Positions 12,615 to 32,167 are shown, numbered from the stretch's first letter. The stretch is DNA of 41,207 bases from Pyrinomonadaceae bacterium (GCA_964228775.1 CAXRBW010000148.1:1-41207); one strand, 5' to 3'. Numbers and translations: made by a program. Notes: a model not told the origin generated them from the letters alone.

Positions 12615-13676
12615 CTATCTAGGACCATAATAGCCGAGACGTGTTTTGACCGTTAACTCTGGGCGGTTCTTGATTCGAACACTGACCGATCTCATCTTAA
12701 TGGAATTGTCATTTTCGTCGGAAGGATAAAAACCGATTACGTATTGGTCCGAGAGCTCTGTAGAGATGCGTGTGAATGCATTTATCAGTTCCTCATCATT
12801 CAAAGGTGAATGAACAGTTCCACCAGTTTGCCGGACCAACTCCTGCATTCTCCGTTCAGCAGCAAGTTGTTTCAGATTTGCGCTTCCATCTCTGGATTCG
12901 GTTCTTTTGAAGTTCTCATAGTCGGTTGTCTTTACAACAAACACCTGCACGTTCGCCGAAACAAGTGATTTCACTGCCGAGTCAAAGGTTGTGTCGCTGA
13001 TGGTATCAACGCCGTCAGATACAATGACGACCACCCGGCGACCTTTGAGCGATGAGAACAGATTCGAAGCGGAGTATAGTCCGTCGAGTAACGCAGTCGC
13101 TCCAAGAGGAGAAGGAAAATTGTTGATCGCGTAAATCAAACGGTCCAAATCGTTGGTGAATTGCTGTTCAAGTTTCCATGTCGTGGAAATGCTCATCAGG
13201 GCGGCGAGGTCACGATCGCGCCTCAGTACTGTTTCAAGAAATTTCACTGCCGCAGTTTTTTCAAACTCACGCGCGATGGTCACACTGGAAGAGTTATCAA
13301 ACAAAAGGAGCAGGTTGACTTGGCTCTGGGATTTCTCCACCTCTCCGATTTCGGCGTGTTTGCCGTCGATTAGCAATTCAAAATCCTCTTGCGAGAGATT
13401 GGTTACTGGGCGTCCTAACTGATCAAAGACAGAAACAGGTATCGGAACCAGGTTTGAACTGACCTTGATGACATCGGAATCTGATTTTTTAGATTGAGAT
13501 TCAGTTGCCGGTGTCACTGTATCCGTCGGAAGATATTCAGGTTGGTCTCGCCTTGGGGTAGGAGTAGGCGTTGGAGTCGGGGTCTCGTACGGTTTAATCC
13601 TGCCCGATTGTGACAATGCAAAAGAACTGCTCAATAAAATTACAGCAACCGAAGCTTTCATTGATTGGATTGTCAT
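12615..13676 (-). CDS. Secreted von Willebrand factor A (VWA) domain protein, of the type common in Acidobacteria
   Basis: Signal peptide, a (TP)n linker, a MIDAS-like LLFDNSSS motif, then [11 protein letters not shown]. The conserved C-terminus reads YVIGFYPSD...RLGYY. Confidence 0.75.
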
Positions 13677-16100: not shown

Positions 16101-17597
16101 TTACTTATTAACGAAATCTACTATGGCCTGCGTTGCTTGTTCGACAATCGGTGAAATAATGTCCTCACCTTCGGATTTCGCTTTGGATTTAAACTGCCGT
16201 GTCAGTGCAGCGGACCCGTCAGTCTTTTTAAGGTTAACGTCGAGTGTCAACTCATCCTTGGCTTTGATACTCGCGGCCGCATCGGCTGCCGTCCAAATCG
16301 TTACACGAGCAGTTTCGGCGGCGACCTGACCTGCGACGCTTCCGCCGTATGGAACAGCACCTCCTAGAACATTACCGATACTCCTCAAGCCTCCGAATCC
16401 GCCTCCACCTCTCTTATGTGAAACCTGAGCAAACAAAACGAAGTCGCAGTTTGAGTTTTTTGCTTCTTGCTCGATTGCTGAAGATAGTTTCGCTTCAAGT
16501 AGTACGATTTCGACACCTGTGCCCTTGAAATACTCACCGAGCGAAGTTTGGATTGCGCCGGCCAACGCTTGCGCGTTCATGCCGTCGCCAACCGAGCCGG
16601 TTTTGATCCCTGAAAGACCGACTCGAATAACTCCACTTTGCTTGTCGCCGGCCTGTGACGATGTCCTCAAATCGCCGAGGTTGGTGGTCTTTTCTCCGGC
16701 ATCCGTGGGCTTATCTGATGAGTCTTCATTAGAGGCATTGTTCCCGCTTGGAAGATTGGCCATATTGAAGCCACCGAACATGGTGCCTCCAGTGAACATT
16801 TCCTGCATGCTCTTTGCTACACGATAATCAGATGGTGCTTCAAAAAGCGATGCTTCGAGGGTCGCATATGAAAGATTAAGAACTTCTTTAGTGGTAGAAA
16901 AAGGTGGCTTGCCTGAGTCATCGAACATCGTCGTCTTCTCGTAAAGAGCAAAACCAGTCTTTCCAGCACCGGAGTTTTTGATTTCGTATCTGTCACGGCA
17001 TCCCTCGTCAAATTCCTGTTGATTGGTGGTCGGCATTCTGAACTGGGAATCGTCGCCACAATCAAAAGCGACTTGGGCGTCGATATACCAGCCGTCCGTC
17101 TCCATCTTCATCTTTTTCTCACCATCACAAGCATCGGCAGAAGATTCCATTTGAATGGTTTGGATGATGTGCCGAGCGGTGAATCCAAACATCTGCTTCC
17201 GCTCTCCGGTGTCTCTAAGCGAAATAATGACCGTGACCGTGCCTCCTTTTCTGACAACCGTAGTAGTGGAGCCACCGTTTTGGGCATTTCTGCTAGTGGA
17301 AGATGTCACCGAGGTCGTTGGAAGGCTTTCATCCTGGGCCCATGAATTGATGATGTACATCTTGGTCGTCGGATTCAGTTGGATGGTACGCTTCAAATCA
17401 CACTGCTTGATATTGATCATCTTCATACCGCCGAAATCTTGTTCGGTACGCTCGCGCTTACCCTTGATGTAGGTAGTGTTTTCCAGCGTCTGTCCACCTA
17501 CCGTTTGCCGCACCTTGAGTGTGGCATCGGCAAAAGCAGAAATCGCCACAAAGACAATGCAAAATATTGATGTAATCGTTCTTGTTGGTGTGAGCAT
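16101..17597 (-). CDS. Secreted hypothetical protein (about 498 aa) with S/T/G-rich linkers
   Basis: The best start is ATG 17597 (MLTPTRTITSIFCIVFVAISAFA signal peptide), with GGAGG 7 nt upstream. The track start ATG 17651 overlaps the upstream stop as ATGA. No family was recognised. Confidence 0.7.
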   Translation of the reverse strand: MLTPTRTITSIFCIVFVAISAFADATLKVRQTVGGQTLENTTYIKGKRERTEQDFGGMKMINIKQCDLKRTIQLNPTTKMYIINSWAQDESLPTTSVTSSTSRNAQNGGSTTTVVRKGGTVTVIISLRDTGERKQMFGFTARHIIQTIQMESSADACDGEKKMKMETDGWYIDAQVAFDCGDDSQFRMPTTNQQEFDEGCRDRYEIKNSGAGKTGFALYEKTTMFDDSGKPPFSTTKEVLNLSYATLEASLFEAPSDYRVAKSMQEMFTGGTMFGGFNMANLPSGNNASNEDSSDKPTDAGEKTTNLGDLRTSSQAGDKQSGVIRVGLSGIKTGSVGDGMNAQALAGAIQTSLGEYFKGTGVEIVLLEAKLSSAIEQEAKNSNCDFVLFAQVSHKRGGGGFGGLRSIGNVLGGAVPYGGSVAGQVAAETARVTIWTAADAAASIKAKDELTLDVNLKKTDGSAALTRQFKSKAKSEGEDIISPIVEQATQAIVDFVNK

Positions 17598-17647
17598 ATT
17601 CATTCCTCCAAATGTCTTACACATAAGCACCTTATTTGTATGAAATC

Positions 17648-18709
17648 TCATTTTGAGAACTTAGAATCAGCAACGGGAGCGTTTACCTTAACGGCGATGA
17701 TCTTTCTGGTCCAATAGATGTTAGGCACGGCGAACTTTATAGTCGTTGGCATTCTAACTCCACCGAAGTCTTTGTAATCGCTATAGTCTATTTGATAGAC
17801 ATAATTTCCGAGGGTGGTTGGCACTCCATTCATCCTCCTGACGAGGAATCCGCTTGTCACATCGAAGAAAAGATTGACGCGTTGATTGGCAACTGAAGTC
17901 GCCCTTACAACGTACACATCCTTCCCGTCTATGCGGTCTAGCCGGAGATATTCGAATTTGGTGAATAGATTTCGAAGGTCCGCACCACCGAAGAATTGGG
18001 CCTCGCGCCTAATTTCATCCATCTCATCCTGGTGGAGTGATATAGCTGAGCCACCGGAGAGTTTCCAAGCGTCGGTTCCATTGAAAATCTCCGAGATGAC
18101 GATCCCCCCGTAGGTAGTTTCGGTCCGCAGTTTTCCTCCTTTTTGGAAGATTTCTTCAGACTCCGATGTTTTGTTGTCTGATTCCATACGAATCGCTTTG
18201 ACTACCCTCGAGGTAATCTTACTGAAGTTACCGGCACCCACACTTGCATTGTAACTATCTAATATTGAGTCAACAGTAGGTTTGACGGCTGGCTGTTTCG
18301 GTCTCTCGATTGCAATACTCGGAACAAGCGGAAAAACTGCCTGGGGGTGGGAGGTTCCTTTATGACAGGAATTACAATTTATCTCAGGTCGTCCGTTGAA
18401 ATAGGTTTTGTTCAATTCAAAAACCATTTTTAGCATTTCCCGCGCGGTGGCCTTGTGTTCACTGTCTTCCTTTTCAAAATCGACATCGTTCGACACGTGA
18501 CAGAATTTACAATCAACGCCGAGTGAAGCAGTCATTTGGTTCATGACCTTTCCCATCTGATCGGCGGGCATTGAATTAAGAACTTTGATGTTTTTGAATT
18601 CCTCACCAGCCGTCTTGACGCGGGTTTGAGTGCTCCCATTCGGAGCAAAAATCACAAATGCTGCGAACGAAAAGGAAAAAATGATTGAGATTTGAAGGAG
18701 TTTTTTCAT
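17648..18709 (-). CDS. Secreted di-heme c-type cytochrome with a photosynthetic-reaction-centre cytochrome-like N-domain and a beta-rich (LolA-like?) C-domain
   Basis: A signal peptide and two CxxCH motifs (CKFCH, CNSCH) sit in the pattern EEFKNIKVL...M...M..SLGV.C.FCH...D...E...K..AR.M..M, which is typical of the PRC cytochrome c family. Confidence 0.7.
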   Translation of the reverse strand: MKKLLQISIIFSFSFAAFVIFAPNGSTQTRVKTAGEEFKNIKVLNSMPADQMGKVMNQMTASLGVDCKFCHVSNDVDFEKEDSEHKATAREMLKMVFELNKTYFNGRPEINCNSCHKGTSHPQAVFPLVPSIAIERPKQPAVKPTVDSILDSYNASVGAGNFSKITSRVVKAIRMESDNKTSESEEIFQKGGKLRTETTYGGIVISEIFNGTDAWKLSGGSAISLHQDEMDEIRREAQFFGGADLRNLFTKFEYLRLDRIDGKDVYVVRATSVANQRVNLFFDVTSGFLVRRMNGVPTTLGNYVYQIDYSDYKDFGGVRMPTTIKFAVPNIYWTRKIIAVKVNAPVADSKFSK

Positions 18710-20300: not shown

Positions 20301-20376
20301 GCCACCTTAGCTCAGTTGGTAGAGCATTCGATTCGTAATCGAAAGGTCGTCGGTTCAAATCCGACAGGTGGCTCCA
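20301..20376 (+). tRNA. tRNA-Thr (anticodon CGU)
   Basis: A 76-nt cloverleaf. The acceptor GCCACCT pairs with AGGTGGC. The D-arm is AGCTCAGTTGGTAGAGC. The anticodon stem TTCGA/TCGAA carries loop TTCGTAA. The T-arm is GTCGGTTCAAATCCGAC, and CCA is encoded. Confidence 0.92.
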
Positions 20377-20386
20377 TAATTGATCT

Positions 20387-20417
20387 AAGACCTCGAGAGA
20401 GGTCTTTTCTGTTTTTT
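20387..20417 (+). terminator. Rho-independent terminator after tRNA-Thr
   Basis: AAGACCTC, loop GAGA, GAGGTCTT, followed by TTCTGTTTTTT. Confidence 0.75.
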
Positions 20418-20467
20418 AAGGGGTATGAATTGTTGTACGTTGGAGAATTGGAGTTCTAATTCAAAGG

Positions 20468-21505
20468 ATGATTTCAAACCTGCAAATTCTCCGAGCCTTG
20501 GCGGCGATCAATGTGGTCTTCTTCCATGTTCTCGTATGGGGGAAAAATTGGTATGGAATCGACGCCCCTTATCTAGGATACATGCGTGGTTGGGGTGAAA
20601 GCGGCGTTGATGTATTTTTTGTAATGTCAGGATTTCTGCTGGTTTATAGCCAAGCGCGAAACCCAAGAGGTGTTTGGGACTTTGGTGTGAATCGCATTTT
20701 GAGAATTGTTCCGCTTTATTGGATTCTGACGATTCTCTTTGCGGTGATAGACATCTCCTCGCCTGGAATCTTGACCTCTGCGCCAACTACACCGGAATTT
20801 TTACTCTCCTCTCTCGGCTTCTTGTCACGGATGACAGGTCATGCTTATCCATTGATGATTGTCGGTTGGACCTTGGATTTCGAGATGTTCTTTTATCTCA
20901 TAATCGCGCTTGGAATATTAGTATTTGGACACGGAAAAACCTACACAGTTACGGCGGCGATTTTTCTGCTTTTTGTAACGATGAATTGGGCTGACGCGTT
21001 GATAATCGAATTCCTTTTCGGAGTTTTGATTGGACTTCTCTATGTTAGAGACTCCAATGGAAAACTTGCTCGGACACTTTTGGCACTCGGAGTCGTCCTG
21101 TTGTTTGCGAGCATCCACATAAGTGACGAGCAGTGGAATTCATGGCGATTGATTGGCGCTGAGTATGGTCTTGAGGCAAGTAAGAATGATTTGAGGCTCG
21201 TCATTTGGGGAGTTCCATCGGCGTTGATAGTTTATGGAGTAGTTAATCTTAAACAAATAAAAACTCCAGTACTTCTTTTCCTCGGAAACTGCTCATACAG
21301 CATCTTTCTTGTGCAGGCTATTTTTCTCCCACTTGCTCTAAGACTTTTCTTGCCATATACGGAGAGTCTTAATGTGGACATCGGATCTCTTCTTATAGTG
21401 ATTTTCACGATTGGAGTTGGCGTGGCAACCCATTACCTTATGGAGCGCCCGTTGGCGCTAATGGCAAAGCAACTTCAATCAATCATTTCAAAACAGCCCG
21501 TATGA
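20468..21505 (+). CDS. Acyltransferase family 3 integral membrane protein (OafA/NolL-like O-acyltransferase)
   Basis: The N-terminal LRALAAINVVFFHV...GVDVFFVMSGFL motif is followed by about 10 hydrophobic segments. Confidence 0.85.
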   Translation: MISNLQILRALAAINVVFFHVLVWGKNWYGIDAPYLGYMRGWGESGVDVFFVMSGFLLVYSQARNPRGVWDFGVNRILRIVPLYWILTILFAVIDISSPGILTSAPTTPEFLLSSLGFLSRMTGHAYPLMIVGWTLDFEMFFYLIIALGILVFGHGKTYTVTAAIFLLFVTMNWADALIIEFLFGVLIGLLYVRDSNGKLARTLLALGVVLLFASIHISDEQWNSWRLIGAEYGLEASKNDLRLVIWGVPSALIVYGVVNLKQIKTPVLLFLGNCSYSIFLVQAIFLPLALRLFLPYTESLNVDIGSLLIVIFTIGVGVATHYLMERPLALMAKQLQSIISKQPV

Positions 21506-21915
21506 ATCCTGAATATTTTCAGGTTCGCTTCTCTTCTCCATTGACTGTCTCTGTTTGGCCGGCATCGTTTGCAATCATCACAGCATGGCCAACAACGGGC
21601 GAAGTCTGGCAGCCGAGTAGGATTGGAGAGGCGGATAGAAAACTGGTTGCCAGGCTTGAATCTGAATCTGGATGGGTTGTTCCTTTGACCGGTTATTCAC
21701 CGGCGACAGGTCATTCCGAACCTGGATGGGGCGCAGAAATTGAATTTGAAAAGGCCTGTGATATTGGACAAGAGTGGTTACAGGACGCTGTCTATTTCGT
21801 GCAAGACGAGATCTTATTTGTGAGTTTCTGCGACCACAGAAGAAAACCTTTCCAAGTTGGGAACTTCTTTGAGAGGCTCGATTCTCACGATGTTGTCACT
21901 GCTTCGTTGAAATAA
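21502..21915 (+). CDS. Hypothetical protein, DUF3293-like
   Basis: Its ATG overlaps the acyltransferase stop as ATGA. The pattern FAIITAWPTTGE...N...L...L...G....GYSP..GHSEPGWG...A..IGQEW.Q.AV recalls DUF3293 (from memory; not verified). Confidence 0.55.
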   Translation: MNPEYFQVRFSSPLTVSVWPASFAIITAWPTTGEVWQPSRIGEADRKLVARLESESGWVVPLTGYSPATGHSEPGWGAEIEFEKACDIGQEWLQDAVYFVQDEILFVSFCDHRRKPFQVGNFFERLDSHDVVTASLK

Positions 21916-22849
21916 AAATCGCTTGGTCACCGATTCCCTCGGAATTAACACGGCGTGCTTCTTCTGAAAACATTTTTAATTCCGATTCGGTAAAGTTGCT
22001 TCGTTGTGATTCAAAACTTGCTTGTCCTTCTAGCAGTGCGACATCCCTTTGGTAAAGCTCGCTTCCCCAAAACTGAAAATCAAAAGAATCAAATTTCACC
22101 GTTTCCATTTCAAGGCCCGCCGATGAAATCAAAATACCAATGCTTTTCAAAGAGTGGAGATAGAAATGTCGGGGAGCGTCTAGTTGAACCCAATCCCGAC
22201 CGTACTTTTGATAGGCAAAAGACGAGGATAGTGGAATTCTGATAACCAATTTGCCACCTTTGACGAGCAATTCCGAAGCGCTCTTGATGACTTCGCTTTG
22301 TCGCGGCATGTGTTCAAAGGAATGATTGAAGAAGATTGAGTCATATTCACCAGCATGTTCGAAAATACTTTGTTTTCTTATTACAAGATGGTCGTCGACT
22401 ATTTGATCTTCAGAAATAAATGGATCAATGCCCGTTAGGTTTTTGAAGCCTGCGTTTCTGAGTTGCCTTAAAAATCCGCCGCCACCCGAACCGACATCTA
22501 ATATCCTAAGATTCTTATTTCGCAGCGCCGAAGAAACGTTGCGGATTTCCTCTTTACTCTTAACCCAGTACAGAAGTCGCCCGACAACCCCTTTACCTGT
22601 AGCGGCAAACATATCCCTTTGACCGACAAGGAACCTTAGCAATGGACTATCTGATGGTATGGTGTTAGCAAGCGAATAGTAATCAGAAGGGTAGTGCTTG
22701 TCGATCGATTCCGGATACAAATCTATCTGAAGACATTCACAGAAATCACAACGGAAATAGTCGAATGTTTCGCGGGAGCCGAACATCATTTCGCGAGCAG
22801 TGATAATTCCGAAATCGCCTGAAGAGTTACAAATACGACAAGTTTTCAT
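21896..22849 (-). CDS. Class I SAM-dependent methyltransferase with an N-terminal Cys4 zinc-ribbon
   Basis: CRICNS...CDFCE at the N-terminus. SAM motif I is ILDVGSGGGGFLRQL. No DPPY/NPPY or PCQ motif is present, so it is not an obvious DNA methyltransferase. Its 3' end overlaps the convergent DUF3293-like ORF by 20 nt. Confidence 0.8.
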   Translation of the reverse strand: MKTCRICNSSGDFGIITAREMMFGSRETFDYFRCDFCECLQIDLYPESIDKHYPSDYYSLANTIPSDSPLLRFLVGQRDMFAATGKGVVGRLLYWVKSKEEIRNVSSALRNKNLRILDVGSGGGGFLRQLRNAGFKNLTGIDPFISEDQIVDDHLVIRKQSIFEHAGEYDSIFFNHSFEHMPRQSEVIKSASELLVKGGKLVIRIPLSSSFAYQKYGRDWVQLDAPRHFYLHSLKSIGILISSAGLEMETVKFDSFDFQFWGSELYQRDVALLEGQASFESQRSNFTESELKMFSEEARRVNSEGIGDQAIFISTKQ

Positions 22850-22855
22850 AGCTTG

Positions 22856-23455
22856 CTATTCAAGATCTGAAATAGCCTTTTTGATTTTCTCAATCAGCCT
22901 GTTCCCGTCGGCAAGGCTGAACGGTGATTTCCAATCGTCAGATGCTCTAAGCTCGAGACCTTCCTCAATTTGCACGGATTTCCAACCTGTTGGTGTTTCT
23001 ATTGATCGTTCTTCGACATTCTTTGTTTCAGCTATCTTCGTAAGCTCAGAAGAGGTCGTTGAGAGATTAACGTCATTCCTATATGACGCGTAGTCCTCAA
23101 TCTCATCGGCACTTTCGAAATCCGGCAGCGGGCGAGAAATAAACGTTTCGAGTGGTATGACGTGGGGTCCCTTAAATGTTTTCTTAATTTGTCTTATCGA
23201 GAACCCAACTGACTGCAATTTCTTAACAGCTACCGCAGTCAATACATGTTGGTGATTGAAAACTGCCTGGACACCCTCTTTTGAGATGGCGGGTGGCAGT
23301 AATCCTTCGGTCAAATAAAATCTTAGAGAACGTTCATTGAGAGACTCATTCACATTACCCCGACCCTGGCCGATGCGAACCTTGGCAATCTCCGTGTTAA
23401 CCGCTTCAACTAGATTCTTAACGCCCAATATCTTGTTTCTATTACTCGAACTCAT
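22856..23455 (-). CDS. Hypothetical protein with a divergent MerR-like HTH segment and an acidic C-terminal half
   Basis: SLRFYLTEGLLPPAISKEG..AVFNHQHVLTAVAVKKLQSVGFSIRQIKK resembles the MerR wing and start of the dimerisation helix (R.YE..GLL.P......R.Y......L..I..L...GFSL..IK). The stop lies 6 nt before the methyltransferase start, so the two are probably co-transcribed. Confidence 0.5.
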   Translation of the reverse strand: MSSSNRNKILGVKNLVEAVNTEIAKVRIGQGRGNVNESLNERSLRFYLTEGLLPPAISKEGVQAVFNHQHVLTAVAVKKLQSVGFSIRQIKKTFKGPHVIPLETFISRPLPDFESADEIEDYASYRNDVNLSTTSSELTKIAETKNVEERSIETPTGWKSVQIEEGLELRASDDWKSPFSLADGNRLIEKIKKAISDLE

Positions 23456-23465
23456 ACTGGGCAGT

Positions 23466-23493
23466 AGAATACTGTCATTTTATGAAATGTCAA
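23466..23493 (-). promoter_or_regulatory. Putative promoter of the MerR-like/methyltransferase operon, possibly giving a (near-)leaderless mRNA
   Basis: The minus strand reads TTGACA (23493-23488), a 16-nt spacer, then TATTCT (23471-23466). Only 10 nt separate the -10 element from the ATG at 23455, and no SD is present. Confidence 0.35.
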
Positions 23494-23958
23494 TAAAATA
23501 GGCATTGTTATTCTGTCAGTGAAGTACTGTTACTTCTTTTTGCACTCGGCGGCTAGGCTTGGGCCGAGCTGAATCGAATAGATCTGATGGTCCGGATTTG
23601 GACTGTCGGTAAATGAAATGATGGCTCGTTTCATGGACCATGAACTGCTCGACGAGGAGACGGGTCAGGTTCTAATCGGAACGGTTTCATGGTGCTCTTG
23701 TCGAAATACTCTGTTCGGTTTTCGCGGTGGTCTTGCTGATGCTAGCAACTTATTATTCAAGTCGTGATGATGTTCGTACTTCTCAGCGAATCCGGACTCA
23801 ACTAGCCATTGAAATCAGAGTATGAATTTGGCCGGTAAATCTGCTATTGTTGGCAGACGAAAAAGTAGTTGTCCGCATTCTACTTGCTCAAAATCTTAAT
23901 CGTTTAGTTTGTCTCTGAACGAGAAGTTTACGGGTGTGATTGGAAAAATCATTCACGT

Positions 23959-26900
23959 ATGAAGAGACAGTCCGAAACATTCAAATCAACCGCTGCGATT
24001 CTGCGCAATGCAGAGCGTGTTTTCGTACTCACTGGTGCGGGGGTTTCTGCTGAGTCCGGGGTTCCTACATTCAAAGGAGGCGGACAATCGCAGACTTGGC
24101 AGGGTAGGTCGTTTTCATCACTTTCCTCAGTAACCCTAATCGAAGAAGATCTTCCACTTGTGTGGGAATGGTTCGATTACAGGCTTAATCTGATCAGCCA
24201 ATGTAACCCGAATGCGGCGCATGAGGTGCTCGCCAAAGCCTCCAAATACTCAAGATACAAAAGCTTTTCACTTGTAACTCAAAACATCGATGGTCTTCAT
24301 GAGTCCGCCGGCTCCGAAGGAGTCGTGGAACTACATGGGAGTATCTGGAGGGCGAGATGTCTAGGCTGTGGTGCGATTGAGCCTATCTCAGAGATTCCGA
24401 AGGAGGATCGGCCGCCTGTCTGCGGTGGGTGTGGGGATTCGATGAGGCCTGATGTAGTGCTCTTCGGGGAAACATTGTCTAGTGCTTCTTATGGACTCGC
24501 ACATGCGTACGCTGCTGCATGTGATGTCTGCTTGGTAATTGGAACTTCTGCACTAGTGTATCCGGCGGCGGCGTTGCCGCAGGCGGCTCGGCGAAATGGG
24601 GCAAAAATAATCGAGATAAATCCCGAAGAAACTGCGGTCAGTAAATACGCTGATATTTCAATAAGACGGGCGGTAGCAGAGGTTCTCCCTCAATTATTCA
24701 GTTTTATCGAAGAGGGAGAGGTTGATTCCGAGGCACTCGAAGAACCACCAGAGATAAAGGAAGCAATAAAGGCCTATCTCGAGGAAAAAGGTGGCGAGGA
24801 GCTTACAGAAGAGGAGTTTGATCTATCACCAATACTTGACGATCGGTTCAGGGAAAATAGGAAGAGACTTGTATCGTTCGCTTTTGAAGGTGGAGGCGCA
24901 GAATTATACCGCTTCACGACAGATAGGGGCGATACCTTCTTATTCGTTTCAGGGGGTAGTGTCGATACAAATAATGAAACGAACGAAGAGTGGCTTTGGT
25001 GGGGACCTGTCGTTGTCGATTCTGTAAAAGACGGTATTACGAGAATCGCAGGGGAAGATTTGATTTTTCATATCGCGCGGGCGTTCGTACATCCAGACTG
25101 CATCGACGATGTAACGGAATATGTGCAAAAGGTGTTTTCTGATCTTTCGGAAGCTTCTCTCCGTAAGTTAGCGCTGTTCAAAAAGCCGACCACTGTCGAG
25201 GAATGGTTATCTAAAGCAAATCATGATGAAGCCCTGTTCAATTCAACTGAAGAAGAAGCCTTGGAACAAACTGTGGGTGAATCGCAGGAAGAGCTTCATC
25301 AGTCGATGCAATCAGATGTGGCTGCGGAGCAAAAACCGTCAGAGCGAGCCATTTATTCCAATCGAGCTAACAGACACTTTCTCCTGTTTTGGCGCAGCAC
25401 CACCTTAATCGCCCATGAGAGATCTAAATCACTCTTGGATCTGATTTCAAGCAATCAAATTTCAGAAGTCAATAACGGTGACACCCTCTGGGTCGTAACT
25501 GTGATTGATGGCGAACTTGTACTGTGCGGAAGAATGGTTGTGGGCGAGGTTCTTGATCGTCACGGAGCAAGTGAGAGATTCGGTGACAAAGATTTATGGA
25601 AGTCAGATTGGTTTGCAGTAGCAAAAGAATCTACTCCTTGCGAGAGGCTCCGCCGAATACATCTCGGAGAAAGCGCATTCGATCTTAGATTTAATGATGA
25701 GTTTGAAGACAGATTTGTCGCAGCAGATGGGCGGATATCGAGAAGCCAGACGAGGCAGATGCGCGAACTTACGGATGGGACGGTTGAACTGCTAGAAGAA
25801 GTTTGGAAGGAGGGAGATCTGACAGAGGTTTCAGATGAAGAGATAGAGATACTTGTCAGAAATCTAGATTCTAGTTCGCCTCCGATGGTTGATAGCGCCG
25901 AAACGAATGGAAAACTGTTTGGAAAGTTTGAAGGGTGCCTTCTAGGTGGTGCTGTAGGAGATGCACTTGGAGCGGGAGTGGAATTTTCCTCGTTTGAAAA
26001 CATTTTGGAACTATACGGAGAAGATGGTGTGACTGACTATGTGCCGTGTTTTGGAAGTCTCGGCGCAGTCACCGATGAAACTCAATTATCACTTTTCACA
26101 GCCGAGGGTTTACTGAGGGCCGAAGTTCGTAGGAAAGAAAAGGGTATTTGTTATCCTGCTGCGATTGTCTACAACTCATATCTTAGGTGGTTACGAACAC
26201 AAGGGGTGGAACTCGAAGGAGATGAGTTGAGAGAGCAGGTTTATGAATCTCCGAGCTGGCTAGGGGACATATCGGCGATGAATTCAAAGCGGGCGCCCGG
26301 CAGTACCTGTTTGAGTGAACTCGCCTCAGGTGTAATGGGAACAACTGCAGAGCCATTGAATTCAAGCAAAGAAAGTGGGGGTTTGATGAGAACTGCGGTG
26401 GTTGGTCTCATAACAAACGAACCTTTTGAACTAGCCGCGGAAATTGCCGCAATAACCCATGGGCATCCCAGCGCCTTTCTAAGCGCGGCGGTAGTTGCAG
26501 AAATTATTCGTAAGCTTTTATCGGGAAACTCATTGATTGATTCAATTGAGCACACTCTTTACGAGGAACTGCCGAATCATGAAGGATATGAAGAAATCCT
26601 TTCGGTATGCCACAGGGCGCTTAGTCTTGCCAAAATGCAGACTCGAGATATTGGAACAGGTACAAATGACGTTTCAACACTCGAATTGGAGTTAAGAGAA
26701 TTGAAAGACCTCGAAATACCCTCCCATAGGTCGGTTGAATGGATTGGTAAAGGTTGGGTAGCGGAAGAAACCTTGGCGATTGCGCTCTATTGTTCAGTGG
26801 TCTACTCCAACGACTTCAGAAACGGATTAGAACTTTCCATCAACCACTCAGGCAACAGCAATGGAGTTGGTGCATTGACTGGAAATATTTTAGGTACTTG

Positions 26901-27036
26901 GTTAGGCATTGAATCAGTTCCCGATACTTGGCTGCAACGCTTGGAGTTGAAGGATGTTATTCATACCGTTTCGCGCGATCTGTATTCCTCGTTCATCGAA
27001 GAAACTGGATGGGAAGATAGATATCCGGGACATTAA
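23959..27036 (+). CDS. Multidomain protein: N-terminal sirtuin (SIR2/CobB-like, Zn-ribbon), about 400 aa unassigned central region, C-terminal ADP-ribosylglycohydrolase (ARH/DraG-fold) domain
   Basis: A single uninterrupted 1025-codon ORF. Sirtuin motifs: GAGVSAESGVPTF (aa 26-38), QNIDGLH (108-114), ELHGS (H126), CxxC x2 (C134/137/155/158), GTSALVYPAA and IEINPE. ARH motifs: LLGGAVGDALGAGVEF (aa 661-676), VTDETQL (704-710), RAPGSTCLSEL, ITHGHPS, GWVAEETLAIALY and NHSGNSNGVGALTGNILG (962-979). Confidence 0.85.
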   Translation: MKRQSETFKSTAAILRNAERVFVLTGAGVSAESGVPTFKGGGQSQTWQGRSFSSLSSVTLIEEDLPLVWEWFDYRLNLISQCNPNAAHEVLAKASKYSRYKSFSLVTQNIDGLHESAGSEGVVELHGSIWRARCLGCGAIEPISEIPKEDRPPVCGGCGDSMRPDVVLFGETLSSASYGLAHAYAAACDVCLVIGTSALVYPAAALPQAARRNGAKIIEINPEETAVSKYADISIRRAVAEVLPQLFSFIEEGEVDSEALEEPPEIKEAIKAYLEEKGGEELTEEEFDLSPILDDRFRENRKRLVSFAFEGGGAELYRFTTDRGDTFLFVSGGSVDTNNETNEEWLWWGPVVVDSVKDGITRIAGEDLIFHIARAFVHPDCIDDVTEYVQKVFSDLSEASLRKLALFKKPTTVEEWLSKANHDEALFNSTEEEALEQTVGESQEELHQSMQSDVAAEQKPSERAIYSNRANRHFLLFWRSTTLIAHERSKSLLDLISSNQISEVNNGDTLWVVTVIDGELVLCGRMVVGEVLDRHGASERFGDKDLWKSDWFAVAKESTPCERLRRIHLGESAFDLRFNDEFEDRFVAADGRISRSQTRQMRELTDGTVELLEEVWKEGDLTEVSDEEIEILVRNLDSSSPPMVDSAETNGKLFGKFEGCLLGGAVGDALGAGVEFSSFENILELYGEDGVTDYVPCFGSLGAVTDETQLSLFTAEGLLRAEVRRKEKGICYPAAIVYNSYLRWLRTQGVELEGDELREQVYESPSWLGDISAMNSKRAPGSTCLSELASGVMGTTAEPLNSSKESGGLMRTAVVGLITNEPFELAAEIAAITHGHPSAFLSAAVVAEIIRKLLSGNSLIDSIEHTLYEELPNHEGYEEILSVCHRALSLAKMQTRDIGTGTNDVSTLELELRELKDLEIPSHRSVEWIGKGWVAEETLAIALYCSVVYSNDFRNGLELSINHSGNSNGVGALTGNILGTWLGIESVPDTWLQRLELKDVIHTVSRDLYSSFIEETGWEDRYPGH
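23992..24708 (+). other. SIR2 (sirtuin) domain of the 1025-aa protein, about aa 12-250
   Basis: Collinear with E. coli CobB / class III sirtuins (from memory). It includes the Rossmann NAD-binding motifs, the catalytic His and a four-Cys zinc module. Confidence 0.85.
24709..25920 (+). other. Unassigned central region of the 1025-aa protein: two acidic linkers and two apparently globular modules
   Basis: The acidic, low-complexity stretches are aa 251-295 and aa 425-462. The modules are about aa 296-420 and about aa 470-620. The second has a beta-strand pattern faintly reminiscent of PUA-like barrels: FLLFW...GDTLWVVTVIDGELVLCGRMVVGEV. Confidence 0.5.
25921..27018 (+). other. ADP-ribosylglycohydrolase-fold domain of the 1025-aa protein, about aa 655-1020
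   Basis: See the motifs listed for the CDS. The second metal-binding motif reads GNSNG (nt 26851-26865) where I expect G-D-S/T-D-S/T. Confidence 0.8.
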
Positions 27037-27073
27037 ACTGGACCAAACGGAGTATTAACACACGGTTCTGAAA

Positions 27074-27484
27074 ATGAGGAGTGACAAAATGTGGCGTGTT
27101 GTATGGTTTCCTTGTCAAAAAGAAGTCAGAGACGCCTATGGAGTTCCTGATTACACAGGTCCAATTCCGTACTTTCTCAGTGGAGAAACATTGGAGTTAT
27201 TTGAACAAGAAAAGAAGATTTTTCTTACTCAGGACATGTTGATTTACGGTATTTTAGCCATATTTGAAGACGCTTTAACCGGAACACCGGACAAATTTCC
27301 AGAGGTTGATCCTGTGAGTTTGGCTAGAATTGCTTTCAAATACACACACGGTTTTGAATACTCAAGCATTGCAGATCTTGCTTTGATTACTTCAGGGGCT
27401 GCATTAAAGAATTTTGGGACAGAACTCAGTGGTCGGATTCTCAGATCTGGTCTACACCTCACTAAAATCCCATATTTTGAGTAG
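27074..27484 (+). CDS. Hypothetical 136-aa soluble protein (no family recognised)
   Basis: The ATG lies 37 nt after the stop of the SIR2-ARH gene, on the same strand. No TM segment or signal peptide is present. The antisense ORF 27244-27555 is less plausible. Confidence 0.5.
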   Translation: MRSDKMWRVVWFPCQKEVRDAYGVPDYTGPIPYFLSGETLELFEQEKKIFLTQDMLIYGILAIFEDALTGTPDKFPEVDPVSLARIAFKYTHGFEYSSIADLALITSGAALKNFGTELSGRILRSGLHLTKIPYFE

Positions 27485-27589
27485 GAGTTTGAAATACCAT
27501 TTGGCGATTCGGAATCAAGGCCGAAGTATATTAATAATAAATACTCGCAGATCAATCTGAAGTGGGAGCAGATTGAGACGCTCTTTTAA

Positions 27590-28141
27590 ATGAAATCCTC
27601 ATCAAATAACGGCGAGGGGGCTTTTGCCCTTCTGCTTAGCACTCTTTCCTCTGACAACGAGACTGCTCACGCTCTTTACGAAGAGTTAAGAAGGAGTCTT
27701 ATTCGCTACTTTTCATTTCGCGGTTTGCATGACTCTGATCTCGTCGCAGACGAAGTGATTGATCGCGTGGTTGTAAAATTCAGTGATGGTGCCGTCATTG
27801 ATAATGTGCAGCGATACAGTTTTGGGGTCGCGCGGTTAATCTTGCTGGAGAAATTCCGAAAGCAAAGACTTGAGCGGGAAGGACTTGTAGAGCTGGGTAA
27901 AACTAATGGTTCTAATGTTGATTCCGATGAATTGCTCGAATCATTACGTCAATGCATGACTGAACTCACTGAAAATGAACAGGCACTTCTTATGAACTAT
28001 TACAGTTCCAGGTCAAAGGATTTAGAAAAGAGGGAGCAATTAGCGAGAGAGCATGGAACTACGATAAACGGGCTCCGACTGAAGGTTTTTCGGCTTAAAA
28101 AGCGACTTGAGGGATGCGTCAATAAAAAGCGTATTAATTAA
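27590..28141 (+). CDS. ECF-type (sigma-70 family, group 4-like) RNA polymerase sigma factor
   Basis: The region 2-like segment is DSDLVADEVIDRVVVKF. The region 4 HTH is LTENEQALLMNYYSSR...REQLAREHGTTINGLRLKVFRLKKRLEGCV. Size is 183 aa. Confidence 0.7.
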   Translation: MKSSSNNGEGAFALLLSTLSSDNETAHALYEELRRSLIRYFSFRGLHDSDLVADEVIDRVVVKFSDGAVIDNVQRYSFGVARLILLEKFRKQRLEREGLVELGKTNGSNVDSDELLESLRQCMTELTENEQALLMNYYSSRSKDLEKREQLAREHGTTINGLRLKVFRLKKRLEGCVNKKRIN

Positions 28142-28192
28142 TGAAATTTTCCACATTTTTTAACATAAGAAGATAGACGGAAATGGTTTGTT

Positions 28193-29017
28193 GTGGAATA
28201 TAACGAAATCAGACAATACCTGCTCAGCCCAATCCCGGAAGAAGATAATGTTGGGATGTTAATAGCAGTTGATGACAGCGCATTCGCGTTGGCGGAGCAG
28301 GTTGAGAATGATCTTATTGATGACTACCTACTAGATAACCTTTCCGATACAGATAGATATGCTTTTGAGACTAATTACCTCACAAACGAAAAAGCCATTC
28401 ACAAACTCCAACTTGCTCGGGCCATAGCAACACTGTCGGTTGAGTTACTTGATGAAAAAAATGATGAAAAAGGTGTGACATCAAAGACTCGTTTACTCGT
28501 TCTTGGTGTTGCTGCTGGCTTAGTGGTAATCGTCGTCTCTGGGTTCTCCTTATTCCAAATAGATTGGCGTCAGTATCGAGAATCTTCAGTCATGCCTGAA
28601 CCGTCAAAAGAGCAAATCAAAGATGAACCCAAGTTGGATAGAGAGATCAAAAGCAGTGAATCTTTCAATTTGGAAGATGAGATACCGAAGGCACTTGGGA
28701 CAACAGTGATACTGAGGCCGGGCAACCTGAGGGGCCGAGGGTATGAAAATAAAATCTCCTCCAAGAAGGCGGTCGGGCCTATTGAACTTCAATTACAATT
28801 GGCGATTCGAAGAGGTTTCAAAAGATTTCAATTAAAATTTGAAACGCCTGAGGGGGAAAAGGTGGCAATTAAAAATCGTTTCGTGAATCGGACAGTAAAA
28901 GATGTTACGTTTGTAATTCCTTCAGGGCTTGATAGAGGAACCTATTTATTATTTCTTTTTGGAAGCAATGACTCTAATGAGACGCAGATTGGTGAGTACT
29001 CATTGGTGGTTAAATGA
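28193..29017 (+). CDS. Anti-sigma-factor-like single-pass membrane protein with an extracytoplasmic beta-rich domain
   Basis: GTG start 51 nt after the sigma gene. The N-terminus is IRQYLLSPIPEEDN...ENDLIDDYLLDNLSDTDRYAFETNYL. The TM helix is LLVLGVAAGLVVIVVSGFSLF (about aa 101-121). The C-terminal domain is about 150 aa. Confidence 0.6.
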   Translation: MEYNEIRQYLLSPIPEEDNVGMLIAVDDSAFALAEQVENDLIDDYLLDNLSDTDRYAFETNYLTNEKAIHKLQLARAIATLSVELLDEKNDEKGVTSKTRLLVLGVAAGLVVIVVSGFSLFQIDWRQYRESSVMPEPSKEQIKDEPKLDREIKSSESFNLEDEIPKALGTTVILRPGNLRGRGYENKISSKKAVGPIELQLQLAIRRGFKRFQLKFETPEGEKVAIKNRFVNRTVKDVTFVIPSGLDRGTYLLFLFGSNDSNETQIGEYSLVVK

Positions 29018-32000
29018 TTCGCTTCTTATATTTTCGGTATTTCCTTTCTGAAACTTTGAATTCCAAGCGCCTTGTATGACGAAAGAGGCCCAATATCGAG
29101 GCGACCTCCATCTTTCACTTTTAAGAAACTGATTCTGAGCATATCGCAGAGCTGCGGGCGGATCGAGGCCTATTTCAAAAAGACCCACATAGAAATGCTC
29201 CATGAAATAAGCTGTTGCGGCGTCGTCCACCTTCCATAAGGTGGACAAAACACTCTTTGCGCCCGAGTTCATAAATCCTCGTGTTATTCCTATCGTGCCT
29301 TTTCCAAGCTTGTCATCGTCACCAATTGTCTGGCAGCCACTAAGAATGACGAGATCTGATTCAATCTTGAGGTCATAAAGATCAATACTCCGAAGCAGTC
29401 CGTCGATAGCGGTCCCGTTGCTGTCGTAAAGACTTAGGATTAATCCGGAAAGTTCAGGATGACTGTCATTTATAAATCCGTGCGTTGCGAAGTGAAGAAT
29501 TCGGAAATGTTTGAGATTTTCTGAGAGTATCCGAGATCGAGTTGCTCTGAATGCCGTGAATAACTCCACATGTTCATTCACAATGCTAGCAATCTTTCGA
29601 GCTTCGAGCTGACTAAAGGGTAGGCGTTGTAGTGAGTTGAAGTGGAACTCTGACAAGGCGGCGGCAGTTTTAGTCGGTAGGTTTTGTTGTTTTCTATCAG
29701 GGTCTTTAAATCGGGTGTCTTCTCTGTTGTAAATTGGATCTGAAAACACTCCAACAGTGTTTTGAGATCCAGAAACTGCTGTAGACTTCCTATTCTCAAG
29801 AAGAATTAAAGTTGCGGCAGAAGGAGTTAGTACAGTGTCAAAAACTTGAGATATGAATTTTTCCTTTCCGCTCCCTCGATCGATTGGAATAGCAAGTGAT
29901 GCAAATGGGGTTGATAGAAGTAAATCGTCGGGAATGATTAAGACTCTCTTATATCCCTTCAACCATAAAAATAGCGGAGCAATCAGGGCTTTCGAAACCT
30001 TTTTGTTTGCATTATTAAAAGTGGTAGGGGTGGAGGTAGAGGAACTTATTTGACGATTTAGGGATAAGACCGCTTCGGTTATAACAGCCTCTGACTCCAA
30101 TGTAACAAAGTGTCTCTCGTTTTTACTGACGACGATTGCGTAGCTCGCTTCAGTACCTAAAAGATATTGGACCGCCACCGTATCTGAGTCGATGTATTTT
30201 TGAAACTCTTTCAATGAGGGTGAGTATTGCGTTATCAACAATTTGTCAGAGGATGCCTTATTGGAGATGACCTCTTTTAAATTGTCATAGCGACTAAGAA
30301 GCTCAGATATCTTGAAACTGTTGCGGTCCTTTAAGGAGGGAGTGTGACGGCTTTCAATTTCCAGTTGTGCGATATCACTGAGGAGTTTATCTCGGTCCGT
30401 CCTTAGGTTCAGATCGACACTCCTTTCAAGATTTAGGCCTATATCAGAAATGATTTCTACCAGTTCGACAGCTTTTATCCTTTCCATCACCTCGAACGCT
30501 TGATCGATATAGTCGCCATTACCGGTTGTATTGAAGAGTGAGTAAAGAATGTCTATTTTCTTTTTCGAGAATTCCCGTATGGTTCCAACCGAGAATCCGG
30601 TCCGGACCGATTGCGAATACATCGTGTCCCGCATTGAATTTGTGTATGAAAGAGCTATGTCAATATTTTCGAGAGCGGCTTTGAAGTTGGAGGACTTAAA
30701 TTCCAGTAGTGCAAGATTCTTATAAATGCCTGCTTCAGCAAAGATATCTTTGTATTGGATAGCTAAACTTAGGGCTTTATTGAGTGATTCTTTAGCTAAA
30801 TCAAATCTTCCGATTTGAGTATAAAGCTCCCCTAAAAATCCGTGGATTGCCAGAGTTTCCCTGGGAGAATTGTTTTCAAAATAGTGGAGTGATTTTTTTA
30901 GCAGATCCTCTGCGGCTTTGTATTCACCAACCTTGATTAGAATCTCGGCAACGGCGAATTGATATCTTGCAAGTTGCCTCGATCTACCAAGTCTTTCAAT
31001 TAATTCTAAAGTCCGAAAGGCCAGTATGCGGTAGCTTTTAAAATCTCTCTTTTGTATGAAACGTTGCTCTGCACTTGTGTAGAGAGCGTTAAGGCTGTAT
31101 GCCGGGTGAATCTTTTCTGAATTGGCGAGGTAGGTCTCGTATGCAGCCCTCGAGAAATAATTTAGCTTATTTGGGTCGGTGACGTAGGTATATACCGATA
31201 CTGCGAAGAGTTGGAGCCACTGATATCCCTCGATGTCGGCTTTTTTTGATACTTCGAGTTCCCTATTCAATATTTCAACCGCATCCATAGGGTTACCAAG
31301 ATCGTAAAGGATGCGCGCTTTTATGCTGATTGCCCTCGTTTCCATCTGACGGTCATCAGTGTCCCGTGAGATTTGGATTGAATCTGAAATTAACCTTTCG
31401 ACTTCGGGGGTTTTTCCCTTTAAATAAAAAATCGGAAGAATTGTCTTTATCTGTGAGATTGCAATTCCGGCCTGGTCCCCAAGGTATTTATAGTTTTCGG
31501 TGGAACGTTTCAGATATTGCACTGCGGATTGAAGATCTTCCATCTCGTCATAAAGAAACTGACCCAACCGAAGCGCTGTCATCGCTACCCCCCGATGATT
31601 TCCAACACTGTCGAACAATTCTAAGGCGGCAAGAAAGTTAGACTTTGCTTCGGCACGGACGCTTCGTGAAGTTGATGTCTTGTAAAGCTCGAGAGATTGG
31701 TACTCAGCATCTGATAGCTTTTTAAAAGCTTTTACAGCAACACTTATTTTGCTGTCTGCCACATCAACTTCATTTCTCTCTACTTCAATCTCCCCCTTCA
31801 TATTCCCAGGGCGGTCAGGTGTAAGTTCAATTACATATTGGCCTGCGCGACCTGCCTGAAACACAATCGGTAGTGTCCCATTCCAAAGGGTGGGTGATGC
31901 GATTGATATGACTTTCTGTTTTAAGGGGTCTCTGACTGAGGCGTGAAGTGAGACTCCTCGATGGGCAATGGTTAAATCCACCACTTCTCCAGCTTTTAAG

Positions 32001-32167
32001 AGGAGTGGAAACTCCACAATTTTCCTACTGTTTAGGATTGCGGTGAATTTATTCGAGGTGCTGTGGGGCGTTGAAAGGACTTGCGTTGCTGGAATAAGAG
32101 TTAAGGCGAAGAAAAATACAACTCTAAATGATTTCAGGCCGAACCTATTGAACAGCATGCCCGCCAT
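29000..32167 (-). CDS. Exported TPR-repeat CHAT-domain protein (caspase-like protease family)
   Basis: The signal-peptide-like N-terminus is MLFNRFGLKSFRVVFFFALTLIPATQVLS. It is followed by a beta-sandwich-like segment, multiple TPR-like helical repeats (about aa 160-520) and a C-terminal CHAT domain. The domain carries the His (HFATHG, codon 29481-29483) and Cys (LVILSGCQT, codon 29333-29335) dyad. Its 3' end overlaps the convergent anti-sigma gene by 18 nt. Confidence 0.85.
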   Translation of the reverse strand: MAGMLFNRFGLKSFRVVFFFALTLIPATQVLSTPHSTSNKFTAILNSRKIVEFPLLLKAGEVVDLTIAHRGVSLHASVRDPLKQKVISIASPTLWNGTLPIVFQAGRAGQYVIELTPDRPGNMKGEIEVERNEVDVADSKISVAVKAFKKLSDAEYQSLELYKTSTSRSVRAEAKSNFLAALELFDSVGNHRGVAMTALRLGQFLYDEMEDLQSAVQYLKRSTENYKYLGDQAGIAISQIKTILPIFYLKGKTPEVERLISDSIQISRDTDDRQMETRAISIKARILYDLGNPMDAVEILNRELEVSKKADIEGYQWLQLFAVSVYTYVTDPNKLNYFSRAAYETYLANSEKIHPAYSLNALYTSAEQRFIQKRDFKSYRILAFRTLELIERLGRSRQLARYQFAVAEILIKVGEYKAAEDLLKKSLHYFENNSPRETLAIHGFLGELYTQIGRFDLAKESLNKALSLAIQYKDIFAEAGIYKNLALLEFKSSNFKAALENIDIALSYTNSMRDTMYSQSVRTGFSVGTIREFSKKKIDILYSLFNTTGNGDYIDQAFEVMERIKAVELVEIISDIGLNLERSVDLNLRTDRDKLLSDIAQLEIESRHTPSLKDRNSFKISELLSRYDNLKEVISNKASSDKLLITQYSPSLKEFQKYIDSDTVAVQYLLGTEASYAIVVSKNERHFVTLESEAVITEAVLSLNRQISSSTSTPTTFNNANKKVSKALIAPLFLWLKGYKRVLIIPDDLLLSTPFASLAIPIDRGSGKEKFISQVFDTVLTPSAATLILLENRKSTAVSGSQNTVGVFSDPIYNREDTRFKDPDRKQQNLPTKTAAALSEFHFNSLQRLPFSQLEARKIASIVNEHVELFTAFRATRSRILSENLKHFRILHFATHGFINDSHPELSGLILSLYDSNGTAIDGLLRSIDLYDLKIESDLVILSGCQTIGDDDKLGKGTIGITRGFMNSGAKSVLSTLWKVDDAATAYFMEHFYVGLFEIGLDPPAALRYAQNQFLKSERWRSPRYWASFVIQGAWNSKFQKGNTENIRSESFNHQ

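Follow-up and report, generated by a model that had tools for sequence, protein, structure and literature searches.

Which genes act together at a locus that combines an extracytoplasmic function (ECF)-type sigma factor, a membrane-spanning anti-sigma factor, a caspase-like protease and an NAD/ADP-ribose enzyme? The locus lies in DNA of 41,207 nucleotides from a Pyrinomonadaceae bacterium (GCA_964228775.1 CAXRBW010000148.1:1-41207), and the whole of this stretch is called the window below. The initial annotation proposed that seven genes may form one functional unit, in which a CHAT protease acting on the anti-sigma factor would control a sigma factor that is co-transcribed with, or regulates, a SIR2-ARH fusion enzyme; it also allowed for two unrelated neighbouring modules. 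Comparative neighbourhoods favoured the second view. The unit stood for the sigma factor, the anti-sigma factor and the CHAT protease, which occurred together in 20 of 22 informative loci, and it did not stand for SIR2-ARH, a 136-aa open reading frame (ORF) or a MerR-like/methyltransferase pair, which are lineage-specific neighbours. We put a probability of about 0.55 on the whole of our best explanation, namely that the triad is a signalling module with cleavage by CHAT and that the other genes are neighbours of this kind. The triad and the DNA in front of it are:

27503-27589, + strand: conserved non-coding stretch, candidate promoter/operator (identity with locus L007)
27590-28141, + strand: divergent ECF-type (group 4) sigma factor, 183 aa (TIGR02989 match)
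28193-29017, + strand: single-pass anti-sigma factor, 274 aa, GTG start (AlphaFold 2 model and family matches)
29000-32167, - strand: predicted exported caspase-like protease with tetratricopeptide repeats (TPR) and a CHAT domain, 1055 aa (Pfam CHAT and TPR)

Scanning GTDB with the sigma factor alignment gave seven loci, nearly all of them in metagenome-assembled genomes of Acidobacteriota. A metagenome scan gave eleven further loci, mostly on short contigs, and the contexts of anti-sigma homologues gave three more. A hidden Markov model census was then made over the collected loci (cited by handles such as L003), 22 of which were informative for CHAT. We found a CHAT gene within a few kb of the sigma/anti-sigma pair in 20 of these 22, always as a gene separate from that of the anti-sigma factor, and wherever the sequence extended far enough, the gene immediately after that of the sigma factor encoded the anti-sigma factor. 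Gene order varied. CHAT converges on the pair in the window, L003-L010, L018 and L019, is divergent from it in L011, L012, L020 and L021, and precedes it in the same direction (CHAT>sigma>anti-sigma) in L013, L014, L023, L028 and the P0042 contig. The surroundings varied as well, with SelO and transketolase genes in the window, dnaG-rpoD in L019 (annotated by Pfam), and upstream ORFs in L009 and L010 whose sizes and N-terminal sequences resemble those of dnaG-rpoD. Between the anti-sigma and CHAT genes, L019 has an insertion of five unrelated genes, and L009 and L010 have one of three. When genes stay together despite rearrangement and changed surroundings, this is the usual sign that they are functionally linked. 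Thus, the sigma factor, anti-sigma factor and CHAT protease very probably form a functional unit. The original idea that these three work together outside the cytoplasm is upheld by their co-occurrence across three gene orders, by the predicted extracytoplasmic location of both CHAT and the C-terminal domain of the anti-sigma factor, and by two precedents (PMC11506125, PMC10028731). The triad loci that could be placed are almost all from Acidobacteriota.

Some of these loci carry additional genes of the same kinds. L004 (4348-8688, - strand) and L005 (2-2197, - strand) each have a second triad of paralogous sigma, anti-sigma and CHAT genes immediately upstream of SIR2-ARH, with sigma factors that are 15-18% identical to that of the window. 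Genes with a VWA domain recur near the sigma/anti-sigma loci (L004:20805-22879, L006:15550-17577, L026:11665-12234, L029:11870-12571 and 12615-13676 in the window). In L004 and L006 the VWA gene is paired with a MerR-family gene and located between CHAT and SelO.

Matches to family models make a convincing case that the sigma gene encodes a divergent ECF-type sigma factor, with homology at the family level. The window protein matched TIGR02989 with an E value of 5.8e-12 (aa 31-177, model positions 8-158 of 158) and a score of 45.8 bits, which is under the curated cut-off of 124.55; its match to TIGR02937 (E 7e-4) was also under the curated cut-off. TIGR02989 was matched by 12 of the 14 members of the sigma family, and all remaining matches were to sigma-70/ECF models. 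The earlier label of an ECF-like sigma factor therefore holds at the family level, the window protein having no Pfam match. Sigma70_r2 was not found in the family and r4_2 was found in two of the 14 members only. The window protein also weakly matched the type III-E sigma model NF041236 (E 7e-4), as did four of the 14 family members. Orthologues in L003-L006 and L008-L010 showed 36-43% identity. The size of the protein, together with an anti-sigma homologue encoded directly downstream, fits a small ECF sigma factor with its cognate anti-sigma factor. A profile search of PDB sequences with the sigma factor returned nothing, and a word-index search for homologues returned a single near-identical match. 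Alignment of the sigma profile with E. coli RpoE by hhalign covered region 4.2 only, at low probability, and was not used as evidence.

The identity of the 274-aa protein as an anti-sigma factor is well supported, though not proven, by its family and its structural model. The AlphaFold 2 model contains a helical N-terminal domain of high confidence (~aa 1-90), a transmembrane helix (~97-129), a disordered linker (~130-168) and a beta-sandwich (~170-273), and we predict from it that the N-terminal domain is cytoplasmic and the beta-sandwich extracytoplasmic. In the family alignment both domains are conserved and the linker between them is hypervariable, rich in P, T, N and Q, and about 40-120 aa long. 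The beta-sandwich starts with L-x-P-G-x-x-R, in which L174 and R180 are invariant and P176 nearly so. The window protein has no Pfam match and its family has no Pfam family of its own. However, at the family level the label of an anti-sigma-like protein holds by topology, by adjacency to the sigma gene, and by matches of other members: 11 of 19 weakly matched zf-HC2 (PF13490; best E 3.4e-4) and seven matched NCBIfam anti-sigma models (four NF052375, three NF047528). It is also backed by the zinc motif of the paralogues. In the window's own anti-sigma family there is no His or Cys at the positions of the H-x3-C-x2-C motif, and the anti-sigma factors of the paralogous triads in L004 and L005 carry HLLHCSPC and HLLGCSQC at the homologous position (HxxxCxxC).

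This anti-sigma family is very large. A profile search of 1.84 billion cluster representatives (50%-identity clusters) matched 14,784, 10,421 and 3,675 clusters at E <= 1e-3, 1e-10 and 1e-30, respectively; the low-complexity linker may inflate the 1e-3 tier, but the count at 1e-30 should be reliable. Of the 150 best matches, nearly all ran end to end, at about 270-440 aa. Among 28 anti-sigma clusters from an indexed search, none had an anti-sigma Pfam domain or an informative name. Foldseek searches with the anti-sigma model gave generic Ig/FN3/CopC-like matches, none of them at E <= 0.001. For the C-terminal domain (window 28700-29014, aa ~170-273) a profile search (E about 0.1) and Foldseek (1m42, 6nfs, 1lyq) agreed on a weak likeness to CopC/PcoC, which was significant by neither method.

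The protease gene was identified by a CHAT domain at aa 722-1033 (Pfam E 2.6e-54, 185.1 bits against a gathering cut-off of 24) and by TPR matches. The protein consists of a signal-like N-terminus, an N-terminal domain (~aa 45-140), the TPR region and the CHAT domain. H896 (in HFATHG) and C945 (in SGCQT) are invariant among nine aligned orthologues. All nine orthologues have hydrophobic, signal-like N-termini, several with an obvious A-x-A-type cleavage site, and we predict that the protease is exported. With this N-terminus on the protease and the C-terminal domain of the anti-sigma factor outside, both are predicted to be in one compartment. Neither the protein nor its CHAT domain matched a PDB sequence. 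A profile of the orthologues found mostly generic TPR proteins in the PDB, and it found DdvA of Myxococcus xanthus (8rot_B, E 4e-9) via the TPR region only. In L019 (15518-18642, - strand) the CHAT gene is present as two ORFs, one of 654 aa with the TPR region and one of 375 aa with CHAT, where a frameshift, a pseudogene or an assembly error is possible.

The DNA upstream of the sigma gene is also unusually well conserved. In an 8.8-kb alignment with L007, the longest perfect run was 108 nt (27503-27610) and takes in the DNA just ahead of the start codon of the sigma gene. This intergenic region is 97% identical to that of L007, against 81% for the other two long intergenic regions, and third codon positions are about 86% identical between the window and L007. 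We considered a structured RNA and rejected it (z = -0.47 against shuffles; no Rfam match). Since the run folds no better than shuffled sequence, it is probably promoter or operator DNA. It contains a -35-like element, TCGGAATC, at 27509. Elements of this type (CGGAA(A/T)C or CCGAACC) look like an ECF -35 box and were found upstream of 8 of 10 sigma genes, one of nine CHAT genes and none of six SIR2-ARH genes. Their background rate is 0.083 per 180 nt, and 8% of random windows of that length contain one. The position at 27509 suggests that the sigma operon has its own, possibly autoregulated, promoter. The absence of such an element upstream of SIR2-ARH lends no support to placing that gene in the sigma regulon.

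Further loci add to the picture of this upstream DNA. In L008, L022 and L024 a sigma-70-type promoter (TTGCCG/TTGCCT/TTGCTT, N16, TATAAT) is conserved ~40-70 nt upstream of the sigma gene, and with the CGGAAAC element further upstream it suggests basal plus inducible transcription. L018 is a relative with 98% identity, but its sequence stops 50 nt short of the sigma gene on the upstream side and was left out of footprinting on the SIR2-ARH side.

These results point to a mechanism in which the ECF-type sigma factor would be held at the membrane by the single-pass anti-sigma factor, and the separately encoded TPR-CHAT protein would be exported to the compartment that contains the anti-sigma C-terminal domain. 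The TPR region or the N-terminal domain would sense a signal that renders the His-Cys dyad active, and CHAT would then act as a site-1 protease that cuts in or beside the disordered extracytoplasmic linker. We infer that the anti-sigma factor would be the CHAT substrate in a site-1/site-2 cascade, with a site-2 intramembrane protease encoded elsewhere (no such gene is present in the window) and cytoplasmic proteases completing the degradation and releasing the sigma factor. The released sigma factor would probably use a promoter in the 87 conserved nt ahead of its gene to activate its own operon at the least, and so be autoregulated. The role of CHAT as the site-1 protease of this anti-sigma factor has close to, but not quite, an even chance of being correct. 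The wider proposal, that a free exported TPR-CHAT protein serves a very large, Acidobacteriota-centred anti-sigma family as its dedicated site-1 protease and signal sensor, is tentative.

Several observations weigh against this interpretation. Neither the sigma factor nor the anti-sigma factor of the window reaches any curated family cut-off, and Foldseek gave no anti-sigma-domain match for the N-terminal domain of the anti-sigma model. The signal peptides of the CHAT proteins were assessed by eye. The -35-like element was defined post hoc, after the data had been viewed, and unbiased searches for k-mers and bipartite promoters gave nothing above shuffles. L026 and L029, two long loci with the most distant sigma factors, contain no CHAT gene; a VWA gene is present in each, joined in L026 by an AAA+-like gene. 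Throughout the window's clade SIR2-ARH is located within 0.5-8 kb of the triad, with two flanking triads in L004 and L005, and there may be a regulatory link between them inside this clade. Cleavage of the anti-sigma factor by CHAT is itself something that we infer, and the site-1 role of DdvA is unproven (PMC11506125). Conservation of neighbourhoods is moreover unable to separate a regulator from a regulon target (PMC7826278).

This last point leaves room for another account of the triad, in which the three genes do belong together and CHAT is an output of the sigma factor, a sensor or a scaffold, not the enzyme that cuts the anti-sigma factor. The anti-sigma factor would then be inactivated by a ligand on its CopC/Ig-like domain or by a generic site-1 protease, and CHAT would process other envelope substrates. 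The weak likeness of the anti-sigma C-terminal domain to CopC/PcoC (periplasmic copper-binding) by two methods would fit this, as would the sigma/anti-sigma pairs that have no CHAT in L026 and L029, and mutation of the catalytic dyad of DdvA had no phenotype in unstimulated cells (PMC11506125). However, only one of nine CHAT genes has the candidate -35-like element upstream, and the strictly invariant dyad argues for catalysis and against a scaffold. Operons in which the CHAT, sigma and anti-sigma genes follow in this order and one direction would suit a signalling complex that is expressed together, and in both TPR-CHAT/sigma systems that have been characterised the protease acts ahead of the release of the sigma factor. 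We therefore regard CHAT as an output, sensor or scaffold as doubtful and retain cleavage of the anti-sigma factor by CHAT as our preferred interpretation.

The remaining four of the seven genes, which lie outside the module, are:

21896-22849, - strand: S-adenosylmethionine (SAM) methyltransferase gene (ORF list; Methyltransf_23, E 1.6e-21, Pfam)
22856-23455, - strand: MerR-like regulator gene (ORF list; MerR_1, E 1.7e-11, Pfam)
23959-27036, + strand: SIR2-ARH fusion (Pfam and NCBIfam matches)
27074-27484, + strand: 136-aa ORF (ORF list, ratio of non-synonymous to synonymous differences, pN/pS)

The gene coordinates and strands of the initial annotation match the ORF list exactly. From the same coordinates come the gaps of 37, 105 and 51 nt between the four + strand genes, the 503-bp spacer upstream of SIR2-ARH, and the convergence of the CHAT gene on the 3' end of the anti-sigma gene with an overlap of 18 nt (29000-29017). 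We found no terminator-like site or hairpin in the three gaps, as had been noted, and Pfam backs the SIR2-ARH, TPR-CHAT, MerR-like and methyltransferase labels. The 503-bp spacer contained no repeats, no convincing small ORF and no + strand sigma-type element.

This layout is the starting point for the proposal that all seven genes form one unit, in which the sigma factor would share a transcript with the NAD/ADP-ribose enzyme or regulate it. In both the window and L007 the four + strand genes follow each other closely, and no terminator-like site separates them. SIR2-ARH has six full-length orthologues, one 94% identical and five about 48-50% identical, and all six with enough flank lie within 0.5-8 kb of the triad; in L004 and L005 a second triad stands on the other side of SIR2-ARH. 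In this clade, however, the shared block comprises Fic, a ~400-aa gene, DUF3293, SIR2-ARH, rmuC, sigma, anti-sigma, CHAT on the opposite strand and SelO. It varies by addAB-like genes beside rmuC in L001 and L003 and by VWA plus MerR genes in some loci. SelO, DUF3293, Fic and rmuC are as well conserved near SIR2-ARH as the triad is, so the proximity looks like inherited synteny of one clade. The rmuC gene is directly downstream of SIR2-ARH on the opposite strand in L001, L004, L005 and L006. It stands between SIR2-ARH and the sigma gene in L004-L006, which precludes co-transcription there, and the L001 contig stops before any sigma gene. In L003, addAB-like genes also part SIR2-ARH from the sigma gene.

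Outside the window's clade the two separate altogether. SIR2-ARH was present in none of 10 long triad loci, and the triad was absent from L015-L017, which carry distant SIR2-phosphatase-ARH relatives. These relatives occur in unrelated contexts without recurring partners, namely beside BREX brxL in L015, in an island with Mrr, integrase and zeta toxin in L016, and at dnaA-rnpA-yidC in L017. For these distant family members this is the pattern that the initial annotation had named as refuting a single unit. The missing -35-like element upstream of SIR2-ARH, the type of its SIR2 domain (see below) and the distribution of the MerR-like and methyltransferase genes also speak against a single unit. 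Thus, the seven-gene unit is largely refuted as a general module and is an unlikely explanation of this locus, and membership of SIR2-ARH in the triad unit is equally improbable.

What, then, is SIR2-ARH? Pfam assigned a SIR2 domain at aa 26-202 (E 8.5e-38) and an ADP_ribosyl_GH domain at aa 659-989 (E 7e-57). The SIR2 domain scored 251.7 bits on the NCBIfam deacylase model NF001753, above its cut-off of 243, and matched Sir2-Af1, SIRT5 and CobB with E values from 1e-47 to 1e-30 (Sir2-Af1: E 1.3e-47, aa 18-250). The catalytic H126 and the zinc ligands C134, C137, C155 and C158 are invariant in the alignment of SIR2-ARH orthologues. By sequence, these features mark the domain as a canonical zinc-binding class III sirtuin of the CobB/SIRT5/Sir2-Af1 type. 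SIR2-ARH matched none of the PADLOC defence SIR2 models (ThsA, DSR, SIR2-HerA and similar) at E <= 0.01. The fusion is best read as a protein deacylase or an enzyme of the ADP-ribosylation cycle that is unrelated to the triad.

Between these two domains the AlphaFold 2 model shows two middle domains (~aa 297-420 and ~471-618) with no assigned family. The second is also encoded by itself, in an ORF of ~157 aa, in the L016 island (L016:6649-7248; profile positions 461-617, E 1.7e-38), and relatives of SIR2-ARH have tyrosine-phosphatase and TPR domains inserted between SIR2 and ARH. The SIR2-ARH family was found repeatedly near rmuC and UvrD/PDDEXK helicase-nuclease genes (L001, L003-L006, L015, L016), and L015 and L016 contain an M78-UvrD-PDDEXK fusion and a DNA_pol_B_exo2 gene. 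The family could have a link to DNA damage or defence.

Defence also enters through a third explanation, that the triad is an anti-phage switch resembling DdvS/DdvA and that SIR2-ARH is an NAD-depleting effector under its control in this lineage. Several defence systems use SIR2 domains as NADases. A CBASS-CRISPR island is under the control of DdvS/DdvA, and the relatives of SIR2-ARH in L015 and L016 are in contexts that resemble defence or mobile elements (BrxL, Mrr, integrase, zeta toxin). On the other side, PADLOC gave no match for SIR2-ARH, the sigma factor or the anti-sigma factor and found only generic methyltransferase matches among the neighbours; the SIR2 domain is of the canonical sirtuin type and above the NCBIfam deacylase cut-off. 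No CRISPR repeats, cas genes or CBASS genes were found in the window by a repeat search and domain scans of its ORFs, and most triads adjoin housekeeping genes. We consider an anti-phage switch with SIR2-ARH as its effector very unlikely. The tempting link of the sirtuin-ARH fusion to the logic of conflict systems is unsupported and is removed by this analysis.

The 136-aa ORF appears to be under purifying selection (pN/pS 0.25 against L007, a 92%-identical relative) and is probably a real gene. It matched no family in library scans and was found in L007 only among the 14 loci searched (L001-L014), which speaks against its inclusion in the module. We rejected the idea that this ORF or its region is a remnant of RmuC, to which there was no similarity; no RmuC remnant was found in the window. 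The methyltransferase had no homologue in L001-L014. Matches to the MerR-like protein among these loci came from L004 and L006 only; they were limited to the helix-turn-helix, DNA-binding region and lie elsewhere, beside VWA genes. The MerR-like/methyltransferase pair was thus also dropped from the module. Since DUF3293 is followed almost directly by SIR2-ARH in L006, the pair looks like an insertion in the window. There, a tRNA-Thr gene (20301-20376) is followed by an acyltransferase_3 gene, DUF3293 and the methyltransferase/MerR-like pair (20301-23455 in all). In PADLOC the methyltransferase matched mad2 with an E value of 1e-10 and Type II MTase with one of 8e-8; a generic SAM-binding fold is the probable reason.

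Farther out, the window has housekeeping flanks (SelO, transketolase, aminotransferase, TrmFO, PurEK and Icd). It also contains a gene for a multi-haem cytochrome c (353 aa) and, after it, an ORF of 516 aa that Pfam did not match (16101-18709, - strand), as well as a gene for a 495-aa NUDIX/metallo-beta-lactamase fusion protein (36362-37849, + strand).

ECF sigma/anti-sigma pairs are a major bacterial route of envelope sensing, and the initiating protease is known for few of them. In canonical regulated intramembrane proteolysis, a site-1 cut of a single-pass anti-sigma factor outside the cytoplasm licenses site-2 cleavage (PMC11506125). RseA/DegS/RseP, RsiW/PrsW/RasP and RsiV share this overall logic with the triad, each having a single-pass anti-sigma factor that sequesters an ECF sigma factor. 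Their site-1 enzymes are serine proteases, metalloproteases or signal peptidase, whereas the candidate here is a caspase-fold CHAT protein encoded with the pair. CHAT genes are known beside another group of ECF sigma factors, ECF54 of Actinobacteria, which have CHAT, subtilase and carboxypeptidase genes nearby and for which proteolytic control has been proposed (PMC8999054, PMC7826278). The recurrence of CHAT-domain proteins beside the sigma factor is as in our loci. However, ECF54 is actinobacterial and described as having no anti-sigma factor, while the triad always has a dedicated one. In the literature we found no account of an anti-sigma factor whose partner is a CHAT protease with a gene of its own; an earlier listing in the ECF Hub is possible.

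The type III-E Craspase combines Cas7-11, the TPR-CHAT protein Csx29, Csx30/Csx31 and an RpoE-like sigma factor (PMC10028731, PMC9825189), and its TPR-CHAT cleaves Csx30, which binds the RpoE-like sigma factor (PMC10028731). As in the triad, TPR-CHAT is genetically linked to an ECF-like sigma factor and to a sigma-binding protein, and the output step is cleavage of the latter by the protease. Craspase is cytoplasmic and RNA-guided, whereas the CHAT protein of the window, with its signal-like N-terminus, would act outside the cytoplasm. The Craspase components Cas7-11/gRAMP, a CRISPR array and Csx30/Csx31 were not found in the window by the same repeat search and ORF domain scans.

The third comparison is with DdvS/DdvA of Myxococcus xanthus, an ECF sigma factor and a transmembrane anti-sigma factor to which a periplasmic TPR-CHAT is fused (PMC11506125, PMC6061681). 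This TPR-CHAT is proposed to cut DdvA's own linker in trans, before RseP (PMC11506125). DdvA is the only characterised anti-sigma factor linked to a CHAT protease, and its proposed self-cleavage could not be put to the test for want of the signal (PMC11506125). Both systems have an ECF sigma factor beside a single-pass anti-sigma factor, a flexible extracytoplasmic linker after the transmembrane helix, and ~900 aa of extracytoplasmic TPR-CHAT with a conserved His-Cys dyad, export being predicted from sequence in our case. The proposed logic is also the same, with CHAT as a site-1 protease ahead of intramembrane proteolysis. The two differ in that the TPR-CHAT of the window is a separate protein with its own signal-like N-terminus, and in that its anti-sigma factor, unlike DdvA, has no zinc-ligand motif and has a small beta-sandwich domain of its own. 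There is no detectable sequence similarity between the two CHAT domains, and similarity is confined to the TPR region. DdvS/DdvA occurs with a defence island, whereas none adjoins the triad of the window. The triad is found mainly in Acidobacteriota and DdvS/DdvA in Myxococcota, and the anti-sigma family described here has very many members, whereas a narrow distribution is reported for DdvA-like proteins.

A protease and substrate on separate polypeptides would make a direct test of cleavage possible. If our interpretation is correct, the triad is a trans-acting and biochemically tractable form of the autoproteolysis that has been proposed, and never demonstrated, for DdvA, and its protease would be the first caspase-fold enzyme shown to gate the release of an ECF sigma factor across a membrane. 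Annotation of the triad would also name three genes in many genomes at once, in Acidobacteriota, a phylum that is abundant in soil and whose signal transduction has hardly been characterised. By analogy, the triad may be regarded as a split, trans-acting counterpart of DdvS/DdvA, its closest known system.

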